Shown here: positions 3,516-56,391 of the stretch, in pieces | Layout: each line of letters starts with the position of its first letter | Numbering within the stretch: position 1 is the first letter of the stretch | From: a virus | Lineage: Duplodnaviria > Heunggongvirae > Uroviricota > Caudoviricetes | Virus record (IMG/VR): IMGVR_UViG_3300037467_000752 | Reading direction: 5' to 3' (one strand) | Length of the DNA stretch: 64,000 nucleotides | Program-made: the position numbers and the translations under genes | The notes under the pieces: generated by a model | Seen by the model: only the letters and a program-made list of their open reading frames with translations | What the model was told of the DNA's origin: nothing | Database searches by the model: none

Positions 3516-5324
3516 ATGAGCAATTGGTGGGAAAAGCACGGCATCGACCTGACGAGAGAACACAAGACAGCCTGCCCCCGCTGCAGGCGCAAGGGTGGCG
3601 ACACAGCGGGTAACAATCTGCACTGCTATGGTATTGATAGCAACGGCAAAGACCTCGGGGCATTCTGCTGGGCGTGCGAGTTGAAAATTCCCAACGCAGA
3701 GTTGCGGGCAAAGCTCGATGGAGTCGAGGAAGATGAGGCTGAAAAGGAGTTTGAAAGGCTTATGAGTACAAGAGAAAAAATCACCCCAGAAGAAAACGAA
3801 AAGATCAAGAGCTACACAGGCATCGACTGCAAGGGCTGGCGCGGCATCCGCAAGGAAACGAATGCCTTCTTCGGCATCCGCTACAGCTACGACGAAGAGA
3901 CGGGCAAACCGGATTGCATGTACGTCCCGACGACAATTGATGGTGAACTAGCAGGCTATCGTCGCCGCATCTTCCCGAAGGACTTCAGCAGCCCCGTAGG
4001 TCAGGTGGGCAAAGAATGCGACATGATCGGCGAGTTTCGCTTCAAGAGTCACCGCAACGTCTGCCTGATCGTCGGCGGCGAAACGAAGATGGCACTGGCC
4101 TATCAAATGATGCGCGACGACCAAATTGCCAAGGGCAAGGACGAAATGTTCGACTCTGTGGCAGTGGTGTGTTCCACGCTGGGGGAGCCCGGAGCACACA
4201 AGCAGGCGCAACTGCGCTACAGCTTCTTCGAACAATTCAAGAAGATTGTTGTGTGCATGGATAGCGACGAAGCAGGTAGGGAAGCAGCCCAAAAGCTGGC
4301 GGCTGTGCTGCCCAAAGGTCGCGTCCACATTATGACGATGCGGTACAAGGACGCCGACATCTACGTGGAGAAGAACAAGGAAAACGAATTCATTCGCGAC
4401 TTCTGGAATGCCAAACCCTACACCCCTGACGGCATCATTGCCTCCAGCGGACTCATGGAGAAGGTGAAGGAGGCTGCACGGACGAAGCGTATCCCCCTGC
4501 CCCCGTTCATGCACAAGGCTGAAGCCATGATGGCAGGCGGCATTCCTTTGGGTGTCATCGTGAACCTTGCTTCCGCATCGGGCACAGGCAAATCCACCAT
4601 CGTTGACGAGTGCACGTACTTCTGGATTTTCGAGAGTCCTCACCGCATTGGCGTGGTGTCTCTGGAGTCTGATGCAGGTCAGTACGGCACGAAAGTGTTG
4701 AGCCGACATGTAGGCGTCAAGATCGACCTGATTGCGAGCGACGAAGAACGCATTGCATTCCTTGAGCGTCCTGACATCGTAGAGAAGGCGGACGTACTGT
4801 GGAACAACGCAGACGGAACCCCGCGCTGGCACGTTGTGGACGAGCGTGACGGTGGTGTGGAGAGCTTGAAGAAACAGGTGGAGGAACTAATCATCGCCTG
4901 TGAGTGCAAGGTGATTCTGCTGGACCCCATCCAAGACATCTTCGAAGGCATGTCTACGGACGAACAAAGCGCGTTTATGAAGTGGCAGAAGGGGATGGTC
5001 AAATCCCACAAAATCAGTTTCATCAACGTCAATCACGTTCGGAAATCTTCACAAGGGCAGAAGGCCAATTCCACTGGAGCAGACATCCACGAGGAAGACA
5101 TGCACGGTACAGGCTCCATCCTGAAGTCTGGTGCTTGCAACATGCTGTTCACGCGGGACAAGGAAGCAGAAGACCCTATCGAGCGGAACACCACGCGCAT
5201 GAAGATGACGAAGTGCCGTTGGACTGGCAACACAGGGCCTGCGGGAGAGTTCTACTACGAAAACGAAACGCACAAAATGTTTGACAAGGAAGACTGGATG
5301 CGTCAGAATCCGTCTACGTTCTAA
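3516..5324 (+). CDS. Bifunctional DNA primase-helicase (T7 gp4-like)
   Basis: N-terminal zinc ribbon CPRCRRKGG...CWACE. TOPRIM region, then Walker A LASASGTGKST and a DnaB/RecA-like helicase core. Confidence 0.85.
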   Translation: MSNWWEKHGIDLTREHKTACPRCRRKGGDTAGNNLHCYGIDSNGKDLGAFCWACELKIPNAELRAKLDGVEEDEAEKEFERLMSTREKITPEENEKIKSYTGIDCKGWRGIRKETNAFFGIRYSYDEETGKPDCMYVPTTIDGELAGYRRRIFPKDFSSPVGQVGKECDMIGEFRFKSHRNVCLIVGGETKMALAYQMMRDDQIAKGKDEMFDSVAVVCSTLGEPGAHKQAQLRYSFFEQFKKIVVCMDSDEAGREAAQKLAAVLPKGRVHIMTMRYKDADIYVEKNKENEFIRDFWNAKPYTPDGIIASSGLMEKVKEAARTKRIPLPPFMHKAEAMMAGGIPLGVIVNLASASGTGKSTIVDECTYFWIFESPHRIGVVSLESDAGQYGTKVLSRHVGVKIDLIASDEERIAFLERPDIVEKADVLWNNADGTPRWHVVDERDGGVESLKKQVEELIIACECKVILLDPIQDIFEGMSTDEQSAFMKWQKGMVKSHKISFINVNHVRKSSQGQKANSTGADIHEEDMHGTGSILKSGACNMLFTRDKEAEDPIERNTTRMKMTKCRWTGNTGPAGEFYYENETHKMFDKEDWMRQNPSTF

Positions 5325-15070: not shown

Positions 15071-15644
15071 GCCGAAACCCAAGCCGTGGCTCATTGAAGG
15101 CAATCCGTGGAAGACGGAAGCCAAGTTTCTTGCGTGGGTGCGTGGAGTGCTGCGTAAGGGCTGGAGTCGTCACCCTATCAAGGTAATGTTCCTGAACGCT
15201 ACGCGAAAGCGTATCCCGAACCCAAGCCCGAAGAACGCTGTCCGCTTTCCTGAAGTGTGGGGGTGTCGGTGTGCAGAGTGTGGGGACATGTTTCCGCAGA
15301 AGGACATTGAGGTTGACCACATCGATGCAGCCGGGGGCTTCAAAGACCTTAGCCAGTTGGGTGAATGGGCAGAACGGCTCTACCTAGTGGACTTCGACAG
15401 CATCCGTGCAGTGTGCAAGCCCTGTCACAAAATCAAGAGCTACGCGGAACGCATGAACATTACGTTCGAAGAAGCCAGGGGAGTTAAGAAGGCTATCGAG
15501 TACATGAAGCAAGCTAGCAGCGCAAAACAGCTTGAGTTGCTTGCCAGATTCGCGTACAATGGAGCTTCAGTAAGCACGGTTGCAAAGCGACGTGTTTTGT
15601 TTGAAACCATCTTTAAGGAGAATCACAATGCAGACTGTGCCTGA
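15012..15644 (+). CDS. HNH-superfamily zinc-binding nuclease-like protein
   Basis: Motif CRCAECG...VDHIDA...CKPCHKIKS fits the CxxC...DH...CxxCH pattern. Overlaps the upstream gene by 59 nt, so the start is uncertain. Confidence 0.4.
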   Translation: MTSSTLTKCWRNTALPTNSKPKPKPWLIEGNPWKTEAKFLAWVRGVLRKGWSRHPIKVMFLNATRKRIPNPSPKNAVRFPEVWGCRCAECGDMFPQKDIEVDHIDAAGGFKDLSQLGEWAERLYLVDFDSIRAVCKPCHKIKSYAERMNITFEEARGVKKAIEYMKQASSAKQLELLARFAYNGASVSTVAKRRVLFETIFKENHNADCA

Positions 15645-17290: not shown

Positions 17291-17574
17291 TCGCCGCACA
17301 ACTGATGTTCGCCAACTTGCCGCTGTATGTCATGGCTATCTCAGAGGGTAAAGAAGTTGCCATCGTGAGGGCTGGTTCATTTCACCCGTTTTGGGATGAC
17401 GGTGAGCCGCCTGCGTTGTTTGACCAAAGGGGCTTTTTCATAGGTGGCCTAGAAGATGGGCGGAGTTATGAGTACGACAAGACATACAAGCTGGACGAGT
17501 GCCCTGCACTTGAGCAGTGGCTCCGACGCCAACATTTTTCGTTGGTGAACATGAGCGAAGTAGTAAAGGTTTAA
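17287..17574 (+). CDS. Hypothetical protein
   Basis: GTGA overlap start. No domain assigned. Confidence 0.4.
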   Translation: MIAAQLMFANLPLYVMAISEGKEVAIVRAGSFHPFWDDGEPPALFDQRGFFIGGLEDGRSYEYDKTYKLDECPALEQWLRRQHFSLVNMSEVVKV

Positions 17575-17588
17575 AGAAAGGAAAGACG

Positions 17589-18095
17589 ATGAGTAAAATT
17601 TGCATGGAATCGCTGTGGGCTTCTTACGAGAACATCCGCACGATGAACACCATCACTGGAAATCTTTCCGCCAGTGCTGGAATCGAGAAGGGCTTTGACA
17701 ACAAGCTGGATAGCCAACTTAGCTTTGTGTTTGAAGAACTGACGGAAGGCATCGATGCGTTGGAGCAAGGGGATGCACACAACTTCGGCAAGGAAGTAGT
17801 AGACATTTGGGTGACGGTGTGCGGCTTGATGCAGATCGCAGAGGCTGCGGGCTATGACATTGAAGAAAACATGCGCTACGTGGACTCCAACAACCTCGCT
17901 AAGTTTCCTTCGGAAATGCCGCGTGAAGTGCCGGAAGATTGCCACCGTGTTGTGCACAACGAAGAATTCAACCGCTTCGCTATCCTGCGCCGGGATGGGA
18001 AGTTCCTGAAGCCGAGGGGTTGGAAGAAGATTGACCCGAAGACGCTGAAGGCACCTGAAGGTATTTTTGCAAATCGTGAAGGAGCGCAGGCATGA
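17589..18095 (+). CDS. MazG-like nucleoside triphosphate pyrophosphohydrolase
   Basis: Segment ELTEGIDALEQGDAHNFGKEVVDIWVTVCGLMQIAEAAGYDIE matches the MazG EExxE/D helical motif. RBS aaagaaaggaaag. Confidence 0.5.
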   Translation: MSKICMESLWASYENIRTMNTITGNLSASAGIEKGFDNKLDSQLSFVFEELTEGIDALEQGDAHNFGKEVVDIWVTVCGLMQIAEAAGYDIEENMRYVDSNNLAKFPSEMPREVPEDCHRVVHNEEFNRFAILRRDGKFLKPRGWKKIDPKTLKAPEGIFANREGAQA

Positions 18096-22255: not shown

Positions 22256-22569
22256 AGCTGTCCGAAGCATTCCGCGAAGCAAAGACACTGATGCATTCCG
22301 AACGCAACGGCGGATTCATTTGCCTTGCTCTGGAAGACCTCGCTGTCGATGATCGAGTGACAGCCAAGGAAGCAGCCCTCATCGTACAGGCTCGCATCCG
22401 TGGATACTACACAGCAAACGAATACGTCGCCCGCACGGAGTACGGCTACGAAGGGAAGACAGGCGTTGCTCTGGAAACGTTCCTTCGTGTGAACGGTGTC
22501 AACATGACGAAGTGGCGCGAGGACTTTCTTGACCGTCTGATCTACGAATACGAAGCCAAAGGCCAATGA
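22252..22569 (+). CDS. Hypothetical protein (105 aa)
   Basis: GTGA overlap start within the longer ORF 22036-22569. Confidence 0.4.
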   Translation: MKLSEAFREAKTLMHSERNGGFICLALEDLAVDDRVTAKEAALIVQARIRGYYTANEYVARTEYGYEGKTGVALETFLRVNGVNMTKWREDFLDRLIYEYEAKGQ

Positions 22570-22580
22570 GGAAATGAGCA

Positions 22581-22742
22581 ATGAAGAAGGTCTTCGTCAC
22601 AATCATCAACCGTTGCCGCAAGTACACCTTCCTGTGTGATGCGTACTCGGAAAACGGCAAGTGGAAGATTCCGTTGGCCGCTTACGAGCAGTGCCTTCAC
22701 CGCTCCAACGTCCGTATCAGCGATACGTTCACAATGGGCTGA
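22581..22742 (+). CDS. Hypothetical small protein (53 aa)
   Basis: RBS gaggaaatgag. Cys-containing. Confidence 0.3.
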   Translation: MKKVFVTIINRCRKYTFLCDAYSENGKWKIPLAAYEQCLHRSNVRISDTFTMG

Positions 22743-22745
22743 CAC

Positions 22746-22913
22746 ATGAAAGGCGCTGTCATCTACAACGGCGTGTGGCTGTGCAAGGGCAGTGTTGCTC
22801 TGGAGCTACACCAGAAGGGTGAATGGAAGAAACTTGACACCCATATGAAGGAAGTGGAACAGAAGTACCGTACACTTCATGGCATAGCAACCAAACAAGG
22901 AGAGAAGCAATGA
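22746..22913 (+). CDS. Hypothetical small protein (55 aa)
   Basis: Tight packing. ATGA overlap with the next gene. Confidence 0.3.
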   Translation: MKGAVIYNGVWLCKGSVALELHQKGEWKKLDTHMKEVEQKYRTLHGIATKQGEKQ

Positions 22914-49218: not shown

Positions 49219-50655
49219 CTATTTAGAGAGCCTTGGAAGCGGACTTGCTTGGCTCATATCAGGGATACGGAACGTAGGAAGCACCACTTGCTTGCAAAGC
49301 TGGTTGAACGCATCGGACGTGGCGTCCACCATGTCATCGTGTTGATTTCGCTCGCCAGTGAAGGTTTCCAGTTCGGTAAAGTATTCATCGTTCCACTCTC
49401 CACGGACACAACGCACAAGACCGGCCTCGCACATAGCAGCGAAAGGCAGGAAGCGTTGTACCTTGCCAGAGTGCCCTGACATCGTGACGGAGCGTACAAT
49501 AAAGCCACGCTCTGCCAAATATCTTACGAAGAAGGTATTAGCTGCCTTGCCACCAGCACCTGCATCCCGAGGAATGGTCAGCGGCACGTCCATGCCGTCT
49601 TCCGTGCCTGTTGCAGCAATATCCGTCAGCACGCCGTCCGTCAATTTGCGGAAGCGTTTTACATGCTCGATGTAGTAGATGCCGTTTTTATCGCGAGATA
49701 AGAGGACGCCCGCCGTGTAGTCAGGATCGGGATTCACTTCTGATGGCACGGATGCCGCCAAGTCCCATGACCGTACACGTGTAGCATCCACCGGGGGCGC
49801 ACCGACGATTGGCACCCAAGCACGTTGAAAGTAGCTGGAGCCTTCCACCACAGCAGTCCACGAGCCGTGCAGGAATCTAAGTTGGGCCACGCGAGTTTGC
49901 GCAAGCAGGTTGGCGAGATAACTTGGGTTGTTTTTCAGCAGGACGGGGTTGTCATAAACCGTCATAGGGATAAAACGGAAAGACATCGGAATGAAGTCTT
50001 TTCCTAATTTGTATCCTGCTCCATGCTCTGCGTACAATGCCTCTGGTGACTCCCCCCACTTCACCTTACCCGTCAGAATAACGAACCAGCGCGTGATGTT
50101 TTCTGTGCCAGACACCGGAACGCCAGTAGTCTTATCGAGACACCACTCAACCCACGAATACAGCCACGATTGGCGGCTGGGGTTGCACGTAATGGTGACA
50201 CTGAGTTTGCCCTTGTAGCGTGCACCGCGAAGACGACCAATCAAGGCAAGGATGTCTTCCATCTGAAATTCAGCGCCTTCGTCCACGATGATGTTCGTAG
50301 CCTGCCAGCCTTGCACGTCTTTGCGATCAGCGGGCATAGCTACGAATTTAATAACAGCGCCGTTCGGAAACACCCATTCCAATGGTTGGACTCTCCATTC
50401 AGCCCCAAAATGCGGGTAAATATGCTTAGCCTCATCCACCAGCCCGCCAATAGCCTTAATCAGCGGGTAGGTAAGACGGACAATAAGAACTTTAGCGTTA
50501 GGGTCTTGGCAATATTTAAGCGCCTTCAATAGCGCCATGTAAGACTTCCCTCCCCCCGCTCCACCGCCTACTAACAACACATCTGTTTCATCGTCCGTAA
50601 GGACTAGACGCTGCTTTTCGCTACAGGGCCGGGTGTCGAATTGTTCTTCGGACAT
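49219..50655 (-). CDS. Terminase large subunit
   Basis: Walker A LLVGGGAGGGKS near the N-terminus. Nuclease-domain acidic residues. RBS AGGAGGG lies 4 nt upstream of ATG 50655, giving a start inside the longer ORF call. Confidence 0.85.
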   Translation of the reverse strand: MSEEQFDTRPCSEKQRLVLTDDETDVLLVGGGAGGGKSYMALLKALKYCQDPNAKVLIVRLTYPLIKAIGGLVDEAKHIYPHFGAEWRVQPLEWVFPNGAVIKFVAMPADRKDVQGWQATNIIVDEGAEFQMEDILALIGRLRGARYKGKLSVTITCNPSRQSWLYSWVEWCLDKTTGVPVSGTENITRWFVILTGKVKWGESPEALYAEHGAGYKLGKDFIPMSFRFIPMTVYDNPVLLKNNPSYLANLLAQTRVAQLRFLHGSWTAVVEGSSYFQRAWVPIVGAPPVDATRVRSWDLAASVPSEVNPDPDYTAGVLLSRDKNGIYYIEHVKRFRKLTDGVLTDIAATGTEDGMDVPLTIPRDAGAGGKAANTFFVRYLAERGFIVRSVTMSGHSGKVQRFLPFAAMCEAGLVRCVRGEWNDEYFTELETFTGERNQHDDMVDATSDAFNQLCKQVVLPTFRIPDMSQASPLPRLSK

Positions 50656-51333
50656 GTTGCCCTCCTGTTTTGTTTCTTCCAACGACAAAAGCCCAAGCCT
50701 CCACTGAAGGCTTAGGCATTGAGCTTTTGCGACCCCGTGCCACGCTACAAACATGCTCCGGGGTGTTGGCTGGTCATTGCTACCAGCCCTCTCCACAATT
50801 AGTCCCCGCTGTTGTTTCTGCACGCATACGGGCCGCGTGTGCCGTTTGTTTAGACAGGACGCGCTCCTGTTCTTCCCATCCCACGAGAATCGAATTAGTG
50901 CTGGGTTATCGCCAGCGAGAATTCCCTACAGCCTAGCGTCCTAGACCTTCACACGTAAATCCGTGATGTCGCACTCCCCACAGTGGAGAGCCCTGTCATT
51001 TCAGACCGAGACAGGTTTGACGGGATACTCTTTATGTTCGTCCCGCTTACCATCCATGCGGGTCTGCTGTTTCGTCGCAGAGGTATTTTCTCGCTTCACA
51101 GCGGTACTCGTTTTTAACGTCCCCAAGGTAGGTGATAGTTTTCGCCCACAGCCAAATGTGTAAGGGCTGTGTCGCGGGCTATGCCCTAGAAGCGAAAATT
51201 GCTTGTGGTTTGTCGTAGCCCCTGAAAGGAGGAAAGGCAGGGCAGGCATGGTTCACCCACGCTTCTCAATGCATACGCATGTACCTGAAGCCCTACGAGG
51301 TTGATCGCTGTAGGCGACATCAGGCCGACTCAC
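50656..51333 (-). other. 678-nt ORF-free region where a small terminase and cos/pac site would be expected
   Basis: All three minus-strand frames are broken by stops; the only ORF is 82 aa of low complexity. Carries repeated GCGTATGC and ACTAATT motifs. Confidence 0.4.
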
Positions 51334-51720
51334 TCAGTAGCTCTTACCGTCTGCGTATCGTTGACGGCGAGAGTGTCTTCCGTTCCCCTTGTTCTTCGCT
51401 TTGTATGTTGGCGTTTGACTGTGGCAGTTTGGACACAAGCAAAGGTTGGAAGGCTGATTGTTGGACGAGTTACCGTCCTTGTGTTCTAATTCCAATGTCA
51501 GTGGTTTTTCGCACCACTCTGACAAGCCGCAGCACGAACACTTGTAGCCGTCACGCCGGATAACTGCCTTCTTGGCAGAACGCGGGTCTGTAAGCGTTGT
51601 CTCACCAGCTAAGAACTTCTCATACTTCTTGCGAAAAGAGAACTCGTGCTGACACGATATGCTGCAATAGCTGTTTCTCGATAGCGACGTTGGTTCGCCG
51701 CAAGTACGGCAACCCGACAT
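51334..51720 (-). CDS. HNH endonuclease (terminase-associated type)
   Basis: Motif CSCCG...LELEHKDGNSSNNQPSNLCLCPNCH. Located one gene upstream of the large terminase, as in HK97 gp74-type packaging HNH proteins. Confidence 0.75.
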   Translation of the reverse strand: MSGCRTCGEPTSLSRNSYCSISCQHEFSFRKKYEKFLAGETTLTDPRSAKKAVIRRDGYKCSCCGLSEWCEKPLTLELEHKDGNSSNNQPSNLCLCPNCHSQTPTYKAKNKGNGRHSRRQRYADGKSY

Positions 51721-51735
51721 CTACTTTCTTTCTTT

Positions 51736-51811
51736 TGGTGCCGCAGAAAGGAATCGAACCCTTGACCCACTGATTACAAATCAGTTGCTCTGCCAACTGA
51801 GCTACTACGGC
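51736..51811 (-). tRNA. tRNA-Thr (anticodon UGU)
   Basis: Manual fold: acceptor GCCGUAG, D-arm GCUCAGUUGGCAGAGC, anticodon arm ACUGA-UUUGUAA-UCAGU, T-arm GGGUUCGAUUCC. CCA encoded. Confidence 0.8.
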
Positions 51812-51812
51812 G

Positions 51813-51887
51813 TGGCTCCCCAGCATGGTATCGAACCACGGACCTAGCGGTTAACATCCGCTCGCTCTGCCTCTGAGCTACTAGGGA
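51813..51887 (-). tRNA. tRNA-Asn (anticodon GUU)
   Basis: Manual fold: D-arm GCUC-AGAGGCA-GAGC, anticodon arm AGCGG-AUGUUAA-CCGCU, T-loop UUCGAUA. U1-A72 pair. CCA encoded. Confidence 0.7.
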
Positions 51888-51946
51888 AAATAAGGCAAGC
51901 AACCGAAGTTGCCGCGTCTGCCAGCCGGAAGCTAGCAGGGATGTTC

Positions 51947-52022
51947 TGGTACACCTACAGGGAGTCGAACCCATGATTGACCGCTCGAAAGGCGATTGTC
52001 CTAACCGTTAGACGATAGGTGC
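51947..52022 (-). tRNA. tRNA-Glu (anticodon UUC); weak T-stem
   Basis: Manual fold: acceptor GCACCUA/UAGGUGU, anticodon loop CUUUCGA, T-loop UUCGACU with only 3 T-stem pairs. Confidence 0.5.
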
Positions 52023-52285
52023 ATGACAAGGTGTTTACGTGCCCTCGATACTCACGACACGAAGCTATTTTCCCTGACGGACTTACGTGTGTACTAGCGC
52101 CTTGGCAAACGGGGTGGGATTCAAACTCACAACGCACGGATTTGGAGCCCGGCCCTTTATCAGTTAAGTGTACCCGCCTGTATTCTTGGCCCCTGTGACG
52201 CGGGGCCGTGCGACCTGTTTATGACTCTTGGTAGCAGGCTACCGCAGGGCTGTTAGATTTAAGCCCATAGCTTCCGCTTAGATTC

Positions 52286-52362
52286 TGGTCCGTCTAGCAC
52301 GATTCGAACATGCGACCCTCTGGCCCCTAACCAGTAGCTCTGCCGGGCTGAGCTATAGACGG
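52286..52362 (-). tRNA. tRNA with an ambiguous anticodon loop (UUAGGGG; anticodon AGG?)
   Basis: Clean acceptor (CCGUCUA/UAGACGG), D-arm GCUC...GAGC, T-arm GCAUG-UUCGAAU-CGUGC and CCA. The anticodon stem has one mismatch. Confidence 0.5.
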
Positions 52363-52366
52363 CAAA

Positions 52367-52445
52367 TGGTAGCAACGCCTTGGAGTCGAACCAAGCACCT
52401 TCGCCTTATGAGGGCGCTGCTCTAACCGCTGAGCTAGCCTGCTAT
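52367..52445 (-). tRNA. tRNA-like gene with anticodon CAU (Met or Ile2 type) and an irregular acceptor stem
   Basis: Perfect D-arm (GCUC-AGCGGUUA-GAGC), anticodon loop CUCAUAA and T-arm CUUGG-UUCGACU-CCAAG. The acceptor pairs poorly, with an extra nucleotide before CCA. Confidence 0.4.
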
Positions 52446-52635
52446 GTTTGTACGAGCCTTTCACTCGATAGGACGGCCTTGGACAAGGTGCCATCTACCT
52501 TACCGGGGCGCGACCCCAGCGTCGTTTCGCACTACGGCTCTTACGTCCGCCAAGCTCCGTGCCAGAGCGATGAATATGGGGAAGCCTCGCACTACCTCGG
52601 ACGTTCCACGCGCGGTATACGTCTAACTTAAACTC

Positions 52636-52711
52636 TGGTGGACCTGACAGGACTTGAACCTGCAACCTTCTGCATGCAAAGCAGTTGCTCTCCCATTTGA
52701 GCTACAAGCCC
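52636..52711 (-). tRNA. tRNA-Ala (anticodon UGC)
   Basis: Manual fold: acceptor GGGCUUG, D-arm GCUC-AAAUGGGA-GAGC, anticodon loop UUUGCAU, T-loop UUCAAGU. CCA encoded. Confidence 0.75.
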
Positions 52712-52765
52712 TGCGTTGTTTCCATACTTCGTATTGTACAGGTTTTACGCAGCTTGTCAACTGTT

Positions 52766-53359
52766 TTACAGCTTATCTGCCGCAATGAACAACGCATCGA
52801 GTGTTGCATCATCCAGTCCGAGTGGTCCTGCGAGCATGGCAATGAGAGGATTGCTACGCTCCACAGCCGAAGACTTCTCCCACGTAATTTGGGCCGACAT
52901 GCGTTGCGTCACGTCCGGGATAGCTGCGATAGCTGCGTCCACGGCATCCAGCTTGCCAGCCGCCAAGAGGGCGAGTTGGGCTTGCCGCATAGTGACACGC
53001 TGAGGCACACCATTCACCGTCGCGGGCACTTCGTATTTGTCTCTAAGTGCCTGAATCTCAGTCTGTGCACTGGTCAAGGCACCATTGGCAGTATTAAGGT
53101 CTGCTTGCAGTTGCGCAATCTGAGCGTCCTTGTCACTCAGGCTTGCGAGGGCTGCGAGATTGATGGCGTTGCCAATGTCCCCGAGGGCTGTAGCGTCCTG
53201 CACACTGACTCCGCGAGGGGAGAGAATGCGGCTAGAGATTTCCACGCCATCACTTTGAATTGCTTCACGTTCCGAGACATGAACGCCTTGGACGTTTGTG
53301 CCATCATCGGTTAATCGGACGAAAAACTCGTTCAGTGTTTTGGTTTGTGTCAGTGCCAT
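52766..53359 (-). CDS. Hypothetical tail-associated protein (possible fibre assembly or chaperone)
   Basis: Immediately downstream of the tail fibre gene. Ala/Leu-rich with a coiled-coil segment. Confidence 0.4.
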   Translation of the reverse strand: MALTQTKTLNEFFVRLTDDGTNVQGVHVSEREAIQSDGVEISSRILSPRGVSVQDATALGDIGNAINLAALASLSDKDAQIAQLQADLNTANGALTSAQTEIQALRDKYEVPATVNGVPQRVTMRQAQLALLAAGKLDAVDAAIAAIPDVTQRMSAQITWEKSSAVERSNPLIAMLAGPLGLDDATLDALFIAADKL

Positions 53360-53363
53360 ATGA

Positions 53364-54656
53364 TTAGCCTACTTTCCAGTTTGTCCCGTCAGAGTAGACG
53401 GGGGTTGATACGGTGCCACCACCGGACACAGTTGCGCCGAATGTTGGTGCGGATGCGTCAGAAACGTGGGAACGTGCGCCGTTACCAGCCGTGGAAGCAC
53501 TAGGTAGTGTAGCCACCGTAAAGACTTGCGGCTTCAGGTTGCGAAGTTTCAAATCCGCGAACGATCCTGCAGAACCATTGTTGACTTCAAGCACATTAGA
53601 GGCACTCCACGACAGTCCTGCGGTGAGCGTCAGCGACGTTTGTGCACCGTCCGTCCACTTGAGGCCGTGCCCTGTGCTGCCCGCTAAAATAGGCCCGGAC
53701 GTTCCAAACGCGAAGCGGTCGGAGCCGTTGACGTATACGAAAATTCGCCCAGAGTCCGACGCAGCGTTATAGCGCAAACCGGAGTTGCTGCCAAAAAATC
53801 TGAAACCCGGCGCTGATGAGCTATCATTAGCAACAAACTGTGCGGAATACAACTTGCCAGTTGTATCGTCAAAGCTGAGTGCTGCATCAGCGAAGAATGC
53901 ACCAGCCTTGTTGTACTGGACTTGCGTGGTAGCACCAGCCGGTGTGGCAGCGACAGCGATGTTACCAGCACCGAGAACGGAATTCCCATTGACGGTCTTA
54001 ATGTTCGTTCCAGACACCAGCGTATCTTGCTTGGCATTCAATGCGGCTTGTTGAGCCGTCGAAACTGGCTTGCTGGCATCACTGGTGTTATCAACGTTTC
54101 CAAGGCCCACATCAACCTTGCCGAGCGTCACTGCGCCAGTCTTCCCAGCTACGGATTGCACGGGAGCCGCAGAAGCAGCCTCGGACGCTGTTGTGTACTG
54201 CGGGTGTGGGTCAAGGGCTGCTTCATGAGCAGCTACGGCGGCTGTAGCTGCTCCCACTGCATCTTTGCCATCGAGGGCAGCCTGCTGAGCTGTGGAAATG
54301 GGCTTCTCTGCGTCACTCGTGTTGTCTACACTACCAAGCCCCACACTGGCCTTGGTGAGCCCCGCAACAGCGGCAGCGGCTGTCCCTGCAGCTTCCTTTC
54401 CATCGAGTTCGGCTTGTAACCCAGTAACGTCCGCAATCTGGTGCGTGTGGGCGCTAGGAGGAAACGTAGCGGGCTTACCCTGCAACGTGTCCCACGTGGC
54501 ACCCCCGAGAGAATCCAGCCATTCTTGCTCAGTGCCCACAAAACCATTATCGACAGCAACGTCATATGCACTCTTGGCAACGCCCTGCGGGCCGGGGCTA
54601 GCCACTTCAATGACCGCAGGTTGAACTTCCCGCACCACGAGTGTAGTATCAGTCAT
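53364..54656 (-). CDS. Tail fibre protein
   Basis: Duplicated segment VGLG(S/N)VDNTSDA(E/S)KP(I/V)STAQQAAL(D/N), of phage tail-fibre repeat type. Gly/Thr/Ser-rich C-terminal receptor-binding-like domain ending GTNWKVG. Confidence 0.65.
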   Translation of the reverse strand: MTDTTLVVREVQPAVIEVASPGPQGVAKSAYDVAVDNGFVGTEQEWLDSLGGATWDTLQGKPATFPPSAHTHQIADVTGLQAELDGKEAAGTAAAAVAGLTKASVGLGSVDNTSDAEKPISTAQQAALDGKDAVGAATAAVAAHEAALDPHPQYTTASEAASAAPVQSVAGKTGAVTLGKVDVGLGNVDNTSDASKPVSTAQQAALNAKQDTLVSGTNIKTVNGNSVLGAGNIAVAATPAGATTQVQYNKAGAFFADAALSFDDTTGKLYSAQFVANDSSSAPGFRFFGSNSGLRYNAASDSGRIFVYVNGSDRFAFGTSGPILAGSTGHGLKWTDGAQTSLTLTAGLSWSASNVLEVNNGSAGSFADLKLRNLKPQVFTVATLPSASTAGNGARSHVSDASAPTFGATVSGGGTVSTPVYSDGTNWKVG

Positions 54657-55003
54657 CGCGTCACTTCCTTCGTTACTAACACGCTTCCGGCGATGAGACG
54701 AACAACATCCCCACCTGACATCACGATTTCAAGATCATACACCCCGTACTCCCAAGTAAACCCACTGGTTGTCACGTCGTCTAAGACAAGAGAAATGGTG
54801 CCATCAGCACCGCCAAGGGTGATGCTGCCATCTTCAGTCGTAAGGGAAGCCAGCACCGTGTTGGAGCTAGCCGTGCTTCTGACTTGCATTCTGGCTGCGC
54901 AACCTGTCAAGTCTACCGGGCTTAGCGGGTTTCCCGCCTTCCAAACCAAAGACTGCCGGAATGTCTCTCCTTGGTTGATTGTGATGTTGACGGCTGCTAC
55001 CAT
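54653..55003 (-). CDS. Hypothetical structural protein (Ig-like)
   Basis: Beta-rich 116-aa protein upstream of the tail fibre gene. ATGA overlap. Confidence 0.4.
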   Translation of the reverse strand: MVAAVNITINQGETFRQSLVWKAGNPLSPVDLTGCAARMQVRSTASSNTVLASLTTEDGSITLGGADGTISLVLDDVTTSGFTWEYGVYDLEIVMSGGDVVRLIAGSVLVTKEVTR

Positions 55004-55022: not shown

Positions 55023-55400
55023 TTAGACTTGACGCACGTTGTCGAAGTCCAGCTTCGGCCCCGGCAAGGTGTTCGTGGGCTTGCCGCCTTCGCCTAAGGG
55101 GATGGGTTGACCCTTTGCCCCACCCAGCTTCGCTTGGGCTATCAGCCGTGCCATGTTGTCATCGTTGATTTGCTTGTTTGCAGCCAGCACAAAGGTCAGA
55201 ATTCTCTCTGCCGCTTGCTGACGCCGCAGGCTATCCGCCTTCTCGTCTTCTAGCACGGAAGTCAGGAAGTCAACTGCCTTCTTCGATGCCTTGTCCAATG
55301 CCTTTGCCAGCTTTGTCAGTTCATGCTCGTCCTTCAGGAACGTAATCACGGCTGTGGTAGTGCTGTCTGCGTTCGGCACGGTAACTTCTGTTTGACTCAC
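55023..55400 (-). CDS. Hypothetical protein; first gene of the minus-strand late operon
   Basis: RBS AAGGAGG lies 5 nt upstream of the GTG at 55400, inside the longer ORF call. Confidence 0.4.
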   Translation of the reverse strand: MSQTEVTVPNADSTTTAVITFLKDEHELTKLAKALDKASKKAVDFLTSVLEDEKADSLRRQQAAERILTFVLAANKQINDDNMARLIAQAKLGGAKGQPIPLGEGGKPTNTLPGPKLDFDNVRQV

Positions 55401-55433: not shown

Positions 55434-55461
55434 AGTGTAGCACATAAACAACAGTTGTCAA
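55434..55461 (-). promoter_or_regulatory. Leftward promoter for the structural operon: TTGACA, 16-nt spacer, TACACT on the minus strand
   Basis: Hexamers read on the minus strand, about 35 nt upstream of the GTG start. Confidence 0.45.
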
Positions 55462-55488
55462 GCGGTAAGCTTGATTCCTAGGTTGTTT

Positions 55489-55712
55489 GCTATGCTTAAG
55501 CATACGCTACAGCAGGGCTAGGCCACTATTTACTAACCAAACTGACAATCCAGAGAACTGCTGTAGCGTATGCTTAAGCAGGCTGAAGCAGATGTTTCAG
55601 TAAGCTTCTTGTTAGAAGCTAGGTTAGAAGTAATGGTGGGCTTAGTTGTACGCTGAAGCATACGGCTGCAGCAGATGCTTAAGCAGGGGCTTAGTTGTGC
55701 GGTGCTGAAACG
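55489..55712. repeat. Cluster of palindromic operator-like repeats in the divergent control region
   Basis: Perfect 14-bp palindrome TATGCTTAAGCATA (55491-55504). 23-bp inverted repeat 55493-55515 / 55559-55581. Core GCTTAAGCA occurs three times. Direct repeats GGGCTTAGTTGT at 55638 and 55688. Confidence 0.6.
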
Positions 55713-55767
55713 TCATTATACAGGGCTGAAAAATCGTGTCAAGGCCGTTCGTCGGTGTAGGGGTATT

Positions 55768-55787
55768 ATGTTGTTTTCATACAACAT
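55768..55787. promoter_or_regulatory. Inverted repeat ATGTTGT-tttcat-ACAACAT abutting the -35 of the rightward promoter
   Basis: Perfect 7-bp arms located 12 nt upstream of TTGACT. Confidence 0.45.
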
Positions 55788-55799
55788 ATGGTTCGTTGC

Positions 55800-55828
55800 T
55801 TGACTTGTAGGACTACTCCGACTACAAT
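55800..55828 (+). promoter_or_regulatory. Rightward sigma70-like promoter: TTGACT, 17-nt spacer, TACAAT
   Basis: Consensus hexamers, followed by RBS aaaggag and a TTG-initiated small ORF. Confidence 0.55.
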
Positions 55829-55856
55829 CATAGGTAGCTAGAAAGGAGCTAAGCAA

Positions 55857-56018
55857 TTGAACGTATACTGGAGAAACAGCAGAGGCACTCTGTCACAGGC
55901 TGAAGTGGCAACGTCAGACCACTTTGAGGGCATTTTGGAAGTCAAGGAGTTCCTTGTTCAGAGCGGCGAAGGCTACAACGAACCCGTGCTAGCCGTCATT
56001 CGTGGAGGCAAAGCATGA
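55857..56018 (+). CDS. Hypothetical small protein (53 aa; TTG start)
   Basis: RBS aaaggag lies 8 nt upstream of the TTG. First gene after the regulated promoter. Confidence 0.35.
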   Translation: MNVYWRNSRGTLSQAEVATSDHFEGILEVKEFLVQSGEGYNEPVLAVIRGGKA

Positions 56019-56113
56019 GCCCCTACCGCGACGATGAGGACGATACCAACCCCCAACCCGATTATGACCGCTTGCAAGAGTGGTTTGAAACCAAAGAAGG
56101 AGAGAATGAATGA
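56015..56113 (+). CDS. Hypothetical acidic micro-protein (32 aa)
   Basis: ATGA overlaps on both sides. Asp/Glu-rich. Confidence 0.25.
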   Translation: MSPYRDDEDDTNPQPDYDRLQEWFETKEGENE

Positions 56114-56391
56114 GCGAAGCAAAAACGCTGGTGGATCACAACTACACGGGCATCATCCGCCAATTCCAAGCCCATGTGCAGCACGGCTGGGAAATCGACC
56201 CCAGCAACCCGCCCGACATCTGGGGCGTCGCCTATGAAGTGCACATCGTCCGCAACGACAAGACGTTGGCCGCAATGGCAAGCCGGGTGCCGGGTGCTGA
56301 ACCGAAGATGTCCCGCGAGGAAACTCTACGCATTGCACGAGAAGCCAAGGCTGCCAAGCGGGCGCAAACGGGGCAGGCAAATGGGGATTGA
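56110..56391 (+). CDS. Hypothetical protein (93 aa)
   Basis: RBS aaagaaggagag. No domain assigned. Confidence 0.45.
   Translation: MSEAKTLVDHNYTGIIRQFQAHVQHGWEIDPSNPPDIWGVAYEVHIVRNDKTLAAMASRVPGAEPKMSREETLRIAREAKAAKRAQTGQANGD

Follow-up and report, generated by a model that had tools for sequence, protein, structure and literature searches.

A conserved two-hairpin RNA element between a tRNA array and the large terminase gene in uncultured tailed phages

The tailed-phage record IMGVR_UViG_3300037467_000752, of which a stretch of 64,000 nucleotides was analysed (hereafter the window), contains a 678-nt interval (50656–51333) between a gene for a small HNH endonuclease and terL, the gene for the large terminase subunit. 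The interval is a real gap without a credible protein gene. Our preferred interpretation, to which we assign a probability of roughly 0.55, is that it represents the non-tRNA 3′ portion of an operon of tRNAs and non-coding RNA (ncRNA), and that it is neither a packaging site nor the site of a lost gene. This interpretation is centred on the last ~125 nt of the region, here termed module C, which comprise a AGUGGAGAGGG motif, two hairpins (P1 and P2) and a terminator, and which recur in about 40 copies in related loci of uncultured phages with TerL identities of 32–88%. An earlier annotation made from the sequence alone (the original prediction) had offered three candidates for the interval: a cohesive-end (cos) or packaging-initiation (pac) site, a structured ncRNA or intron-derived element, and a degraded small terminase gene (terS). 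Only the structured ncRNA is supported, by this covarying two-hairpin and terminator element.

Read from 5′ to 3′, module C consists of AAAAGUGGAGAGGG, P1 (7 bp, with a loop that ends in UG), P2 (6–10 bp, with the apical sequence GC-AUG...GUG-GC), UCGCA and the terminator. Direct nucleotide searches with the whole interval returned almost no matches, and no similar DNA was found among GenBank phages; alignment of the terL-proximal part revealed a conserved block of ~130 nt, corresponding to module C, in every near relative. A covariance model built on eight sequences (R1) detected one copy in the window and 31 copies in TerL-linked loci, and a second model (R2) scored 88 bits in the window and added seven further copies. 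All copies lie on the terL strand. The contig extends far enough upstream to be informative in 24 of 33 loci, and all 24 have tRNAs there on that strand. IMG/VR was also scanned with an exact pattern, independently of TerL; of the 22 matches obtained, 13 precede a similarly oriented terL homologue, the TerL identity being as low as 32%.

Because the stems vary in both sequence and length, MAFFT and RNAalifold missed the helices when applied to the raw sequences, and alignment to the covariance model was therefore used. Among 29 distinct sequences aligned in this way, 89% of the cells hold standard pairs, compared with 60% in shuffles, and 14 of the 16 pairs have changed on both sides. The covariation score is 0.685, as against 0.20 for shuffles (none of 500 reached 0.685) and at most 0.12 when the partners are slid by 1–3 columns, so that in this model-fitted alignment the compensatory changes exceed those of the controls. 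P1 is paired in 98% of cases. The helices contain 47 G-U but only 6 A-C combinations, an asymmetry which indicates that selection for pairing acts on RNA of the terL-sense strand.

When the window and seven relatives were compared with Rfam 15, only tRNAs reached the gathering score, and relaxing the threshold to E values of up to 10 over positions 50400–51600 yielded three chance-level matches of 14–17 bits. No such motif beside a terminase gene emerged from a literature search. A published catalogue of IMG/VR intergenic regions lists 8495 unnamed covarying motifs of 29–151 nt, there called csRNAs, among them terminators and elements that precede genes (Comput Struct Biotechnol J 2023, PMC10690425). 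Module C resembles these csRNAs in size and in its presence in IMG/VR contigs; it is new relative to Rfam 15 and could be among the unnamed motifs of the catalogue. The GUGGAGAGGG motif on its own, considered as a recurring promoter-like sequence, occurs in the window at counts expected by chance, and R1 finds a single copy of module C there. In a more distant clade (L057, L131, L141, L142, L128 and L135; labels of this form denote the relative loci compared) a conserved extension, CUAAUACUCGUAACAAAUUUGCUC..GGGACUAGCUCC, and a tetraloop hairpin (GAAA, UUCG or UAAG) with covarying stems are present ~70 nt upstream of module C. The extension follows a small open reading frame (ORF) of ~60 codons, and the motif is probably longer than the 116 positions that were modelled.

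The genomic setting is that of a tRNA operon. On the minus strand the tRNA array is followed by the HNH ORF, the 678-nt interval, terL, a Mu-type portal gene and an S49 protease gene. Rfam recognises seven tRNAs, five of which are also found by ARAGORN; the Met (CAT) and Trp (CCA) anticodons were read from the sequence. These two tRNAs (52370–52443 and 52106–52179), which ARAGORN missed, score 45 and 33 bits respectively with the Rfam tRNA model. The promoter-like sequence at the head of the cluster is also present in relatives, L026 having the same 11/12 match and L145 having TTGACA-17-TATTAT with an upstream TG. At the opposite end, module C closes with a G+C-rich stem-loop that is directly followed by a U tract (tail TTTTGTCGTT), as in a Rho-independent terminator, and this is the strongest terminator-like site within 50400–53000. 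It is kept in most members of the family, which have different stem sequences but the same UUUUGUCGUU-type tail. The distance from the end of module C to the start of terL is at most 66 nt in 18 of the 33 loci and ranges from 130 to 1577 nt in the rest. Only 3 nt separate a tRNA from the start of module C in L123 and L132, and L117 has two tRNAs between the more upstream sequence blocks and module C; both arrangements fit co-transcription with the tRNAs and release by tRNA processing. The array also has unusually long spacers of 192, 106 and 83 nt (52444–52635, 52180–52285 and 52023–52105, minus strand), which may encode further small RNAs. The Pro-Trp spacer shows weak similarity to L035 and to the spacer at the syntenic position in L026 (E values of 5e-4 to 7e-3), and the others are unmatched.

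Table 1. Features of the window and of the relative loci compared; positions are those of the window unless a locus label is given.
Feature	Position	Strand	Remarks
Module C	50678–50800	minus	94 bits with covariance model R1; single copy in window
Conserved GUGGAGAGGG motif	50796–50787	minus	5′ part of module C
Hairpin P1	50788–50768	minus	
Hairpin P2	50764–50732	minus	loop AUG..GUG
Predicted intrinsic terminator	50681–50717	minus	12-bp stem (7 G-C), 3-nt loop, tail UUUUGUCGUU; 26 nt before terL ATG
Blocks iv–vi	50842–50893	minus	UCGUGGGAUGGGAAG, covarying hairpin, CUAAACAA
Window-specific expansion	50890–51035	minus	146 nt; predicted branched hairpins; no homologue in fetched loci
Blocks i–iii	51036–51134	minus	CUACCUUGGGGACGUUA, GUGA-tetraloop hairpin, H-ii (51082–51063), H-iii + ACGAAC (51062–51036)
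5′ block A	51106–51198	minus	UUCUAGGGC-AUA-GCCCGCGACA and 7-bp hairpin (51171–51147)
Spacer after HNH gene	51199–51333	minus	135 nt; lineage-specific; no nucleotide homologue in fetched loci, no blastx match
HNH endonuclease gene	51334–51720	minus	128 aa; PHROG HNH families E 2e-21, weak Pfam HNH_3; 15 nt after tRNA-Thr
tRNA array (Ala, Met, Pro, Trp, Glu, Asn, Thr)	51736–52711	minus (terL orientation)	identified with Rfam
Predicted sigma-70-like promoter	52733–52760	minus	TTGACA-16-TACAAT; 11/12 consensus match; directly before first tRNA
terL	49219–50666	minus	478 aa; Terminase_6N/6C; Shine-Dalgarno AGGAGGG (50666–50660); ATG 50655
Candidate small terminase (TerS) gene	55023–55400	minus	125 aa, helical; weak phrog_641 terS match, E 0.007
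Apparently split terL	L005 5861–7320; L010 5974–7497; L012 5490–7035		
Inserted genes between module C and terL	L142, L129, L131, L141, L054, L055, L135, L137, L041, L140		

We propose that host RNA polymerase would start at the sigma-70-type promoter, transcribe the seven tRNAs together with the inserted HNH gene and then enter a multi-hairpin RNA of roughly 520 nt (51198–50681). Processing of the tRNAs would free module C, which appears to be a conserved RNA family of an uncultured phage lineage with genomes of ~80–90 kb, as a stable RNA ending at its own terminator, while the less conserved blocks upstream would form an expandable 5′ domain. The terminator may insulate the packaging and head operon (terL, portal, protease and capsid) from early transcription. 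Module C would then resemble a functional 3′ external transcribed spacer (3′ETS) of a tRNA operon. Comparators are the 3′ETS-leuZ RNA of Escherichia coli and the ‘species 1/2’ RNAs of the T4 tRNA cluster. Like them, module C lies at the 3′ end of a tRNA transcription unit without being a tRNA, and its 5′ end would come from tRNA processing and its 3′ end from the intrinsic terminator of the operon. Module C differs from these RNAs in having no known sequence relationship to either and no identified target or partner.

Several observations weigh against this interpretation. Pairing is inflated because 13 of the 16 pairs were part of the model to which the sequences were aligned, and the three outer P2 pairs that lie outside the first model are weaker, with 7–11 unpaired cells each. 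The promoter and the terminator are predictions from consensus matches alone; four variants (L128, L135, L140 and L143) have no adjacent terminator, and where it is present the UUUUGUCGUU tail is conserved beyond the needs of a plain U tract. A spacing of at most 66 nt to terL in more than half of the loci fits a cis-regulatory role equally well. Upstream of module C, the 5′ domain rests on three to five sequences, of which the match over 51134–51036 was made by eye alone. Some 41% of the interval (51333–51199 and 51035–50890, ~280 nt) has no homologue in any fetched locus.

The short spacing and the conserved tail favour the main rival, in which module C is a cis-acting leader similar to nut or put sites, such that polymerase loaded with a phage or host factor reads through the terminator into terL late in infection but stops there early. 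The layout of module C, in which a single-stranded conserved motif at the 5′ end leads into hairpins whose loops have conserved bases and these into a terminator, resembles that of the boxA/boxB nut sites of lambda and the two-hairpin put RNAs of HK022, and in the closely spaced loci there is no room for a standard promoter before terL. With those systems it shares a short linear element, hairpins with conserved loops and an intrinsic terminator before essential genes, but there is no sequence similarity, no N- or Q-like gene or other antiterminator protein was identified, and module C tracks the tRNAs rather than terL. When endonuclease genes of 0.7–1.6 kb are inserted, it stays beside the tRNAs, and it can start as close as 3 nt after one. 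The terminator is missing in the four variants mentioned above, and cultured relatives with tRNA–terL synteny lack the element (it was absent from the two compared). We regard an antitermination leader as unlikely, while taking it seriously.

The sequence upstream of module C is a mosaic. Block A matches positions 79–166 of L032 (nhmmer E value of 2e-5), where it lies directly after a tRNA, as it does throughout L032–L034, and its hairpin is kept despite altered stem bases. Blocks i–iii resemble L031 and L117 by eye, and their hairpins fold in all three sequences, but a profile of L031 and L117 built without the window misses 51134–51036; their homology is therefore offered as tentative. The same non-circular profile matches blocks iv–vi with an E value of 0.002 over the whole window. 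These blocks are also present in L026 and L032, and their hairpin is retained with different stems in five loci. Since two tRNAs intervene between the 5′ blocks and module C in L117, the blocks are best described as separable units within the tRNA cluster. The window-specific expansion occupies the position of a 3-bp mini-hairpin in L031 and L117. Within it, CAGGGCUCUCCAC (50983–50995) is 85% complementary over 13 nt to GUGGAGAGGGCUG (50784–50796) of module C and adjoins a copy of GUGGGGAG, which could reflect an alternative pairing or a partial duplication. Folding of the region as a whole was uninformative, with Z-scores of −1.8 for the sense and −3.6 for the antisense strand.

This arrangement invites comparison with the large ornate RNAs GOLLD and ROOL, which are phage-encoded, are located near or inside tRNA islands and are probably co-transcribed with the tRNAs; GOLLD has a conserved 3′ region and a variable 5′ region, sometimes with tRNAs in the linker. 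The ~520-nt stretch could on this basis be a single RNA of the same kind, forming an RNA-only particle. It lies in phage DNA, on the same strand as an adjoining tRNA cluster, contains at least seven positionally conserved hairpins, and combines a conserved 3′ module with variable 5′ blocks that in L117 are separated from it by tRNAs. Nevertheless, the Rfam models for GOLLD and ROOL match neither the window nor its relatives at E values of up to 10, and no long-range pairing, multistem junction or pseudoknot was established. Only ~125 nt of the stretch is widely conserved: the core amounts to ~75–125 nt and two hairpins, most loci have module C alone, the 5′ domain is confined to a handful of near relatives, and the ~41% of the region mentioned above is unique to the window. 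A single ornate RNA is an improbable explanation.

The position of the interval, just upstream of terL and with no strong TerS identified, is also that expected of a packaging site, and the original prediction viewed it within an HK97-like order of HNH, cos, terS and terL. An HNH gene upstream of terL is indeed common to both. HK97-type large terminases are expected to belong to the Pfam family Terminase_1, whereas the TerL of the window is of the Terminase_6N/6C type and is accompanied by a Portal_Mu protein, and the HNH gene, which is sporadic and of a homing-endonuclease family, is not conserved beside the terminase across relatives. No cultured phage has a TerL above ~43% identity, with three different family members as queries; the closest matches come from Pseudomonas myoviruses of the PAK_P1/PaP1, Nankokuvirus and UAVern types. 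PaP1, from the nearest characterised TerL clade, has a terminal redundancy of 1190 bp with two unrelated genes, and not cos ends. Metagenomic TerL relatives number in the hundreds at 58–88% identity, many of them on contigs of 80–93 kb, and a tRNA array precedes terL in these as well as in the cultured phages UAVern and RP11. The closest, L026 (TerL 88% identical), has the seven tRNAs of the window in the same order; it lacks an HNH gene, and its terL lies only 300 nt from tRNA-Thr. Scans of genomes and metagenomes with TerL peptides of the window gave distant loci only, or one truncated locus. In a distant TerL clade (~37% identity) the terL frame seems to be split into two ORFs that lie 140–210 nt apart; introns, inteins, frameshifts or assembly errors are possible causes.

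A DNA-level site recognised by the terminase, whether cos, pac or a terminal-repeat boundary, finds little in the interval to commend it. The repeats that had been listed as terminase-binding sites (GCGTATGC twice, and others) are at chance level: a repeat search found two-copy families only, of 10–26 nt, and by our own estimate several repeated 8-mers are expected in 678 nt. The conserved helices covary, with conservation restricted to loops and flanks, and the excess of G-U over A-C is a signature of RNA. Even L026 does not share the ~280 nt of lineage-specific sequence, and the best-characterised TerL relatives have the terminal redundancy described for PaP1. We consider a packaging site very improbable.

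As regards a small terminase, the statement that no ORF in the window resembles TerS stands for the 678 nt, within which none was found, but outside them there is a weak candidate of 125 aa. This protein is conserved, and in L026, L029 and L031 no other called gene intervenes between its gene and the tRNA cluster; in L026 the promoter of the cluster lies within a few bases after it. A model of the protein made with AlphaFold2 (pLDDT 64) has three short helices, a long one and a C-terminal tail that is conserved yet disordered, and neither Foldseek (PDB and BFVD) nor a PDB profile search gave a significant match. A search for strain variants by means of this protein found only short contigs that end before the region; near-identical contigs occur in the JGI 33000374xx series. 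In the window, unlike in L026, three ORFs of 116, 430 and 197 aa (52766–55003, minus strand) with tail-fibre-related or unannotated PHROG matches separate it from the tRNA cluster. If the candidate is real, terS and terL are split by an RNA operon and, in the window, by tail-fibre genes as well.

The boundaries of the interval given originally are exact, with 51334 as the end of the minus-strand HNH ORF and 50655 as the position of the terL ATG; the G+C content of the interval equals that of the flanking genes. Its prominence is less clear-cut. It is large, but a crude map of the window shows several other stretches of 500–720 nt without an ORF of at least 70 aa (55452–56173, 22289–22876, 17364–17875 and 15071–15579), of which the 722-nt gap at 55452–56173 is directly upstream of the TerS candidate. 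Likewise, the claim that all three minus-strand frames are closed was overstated, since that strand holds an ATG ORF of 82 aa (51249–51001) and the frame shared by the HNH gene and terL is open from 50823 into terL. The absence of a gene holds in that no ORF has family support. The 82-aa ORF has no Pfam or PHROG match, and a comparison with 1.84 billion representative proteins returned a single match, a tandem-repeat artefact, and no true homologue.

Two further coding possibilities were rejected. Stop-codon recoding that hides a gene is incompatible with the presence of all three stop codons in the frames; nor are the two extra tRNAs suppressors, their anticodons being CAT (Met) and CCA (Trp). 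A leader peptide starting at the conserved AUG of the P2 loop was discarded because L030 reads AUG-UGA and L026 stops after 15 codons; read directly, these two loci show no conserved reading frame from that AUG. In the window alone, the P2-loop AUG (50753–50755) is in frame with terL with no stop before it, and could give a 33-aa N-terminal extension. This is probably fortuitous, as relatives have early stops.

Stops number only 4 among the 226 codons of the frame shared by the HNH gene and terL, compared with 10–13 in the other frames, and this might be taken to suggest a wrecked protein gene, either a degraded terS or a decayed homing-endonuclease gene, at what is evidently an endonuclease hot spot; the TerL N-terminal fragment encoded in L029 (see below) points in the same direction. 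Yet a blastx comparison of the 678 nt with the inserted endonucleases, 120 HNH homologues and 120 TerL proteins gave nothing below an E value of 0.2, the 82-aa ORF is without a family match, and the conserved parts are kept as hairpins and not as a reading frame. A ruined gene, including the degraded terS suggested at first, is highly unlikely.

The description of the neighbouring gene as a packaging HNH endonuclease was not borne out either. It belongs to a homing-type family of more than 1300 small free-standing endonucleases, the best match being 63% identical and one member being named ‘homing endonuclease’ in Agrobacterium phage Atu_ph07. Its occurrence is sporadic: L029 (TerL 81% identical) has an intact homologue, uncalled in the source, 15 nt after tRNA-Thr, but the gene is missing from the junction in L026, L031, L032 and L117, in the first case despite the shared tRNA order. 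Other relatives have unrelated genes of 205–480 aa between module C and terL, and the three representatives that were scanned have PHROG HNH or endonuclease assignments. Where the distance between module C and terL exceeds about 700 nt, an inserted endonuclease-type ORF is present in 10 of 11 loci. A PD-(D/E)XK nuclease lies inside the tRNA array of L119 (139–558), and L029 has a separate 126-aa ORF (4610–4990) that represents a diverged N-terminal piece of TerL, which recombination associated with homing may have left as a scar. In view of these varied and unrelated endonucleases, the tRNA–terL junction is a hot spot for free-standing endonuclease genes. From such comparisons the HNH gene of the window is interpreted as a free-standing homing-type endonuclease inserted at this hot spot, and not as a conserved packaging HNH. 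Together with the ~280 nt of lineage-specific sequence, it would reflect homing-endonuclease traffic at the junction. An endonuclease gene beside a structured non-coding stretch is typical of phage introns, and an HNH_3-type gene near terL recalls that arrangement, but a group I intron or other mobile RNA carrying the HNH ORF is scarcely credible here: the Rfam scan found no Intron_gpI, group II or HEARO match at E values of up to 10, terL is complete and colinear with intron-less relatives, the upstream tRNA-Thr is intact (70 bits), so there are no split exons, and L026 retains blocks iv–vi and module C without any HNH gene.

A more far-reaching version of the RNA interpretation is that module C and the 5′ domain constitute a new class of phage tRNA-operon RNA that acts on packaging or on the late programme, and that the separation of the terS candidate from terL by the RNA operon is functional. 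Such an RNA could be a switch that licenses read-through into the terL–portal–capsid genes on a phage or tRNA signal, or it could be an RNA cofactor or particle for a terminase that lacks a conventional small subunit. We regard this proposal as doubtful.

If the interpretation of the interval as the 3′ portion of a tRNA/ncRNA operon is correct, an RNA family with good support and a fairly wide distribution (about 40 copies in a limited sample) would join the few phage RNAs of tRNA islands, GOLLD and ROOL. Its core would be small in comparison with these, consisting of two hairpins and a 10-nt motif, and it occupies a defined regulatory position, preceded by a tRNA operon whose promoter is of the sigma-70-like (host) type and followed by the leading gene of the packaging and head operon. 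On account of both properties module C would be tractable for mutagenesis, termination assays and structure probing. The locus also exposes a trap for annotation, in that an HNH gene and a gap before terL need not signify an HK97-like cos module; in these phages they appear to mark a homing-endonuclease hot spot.

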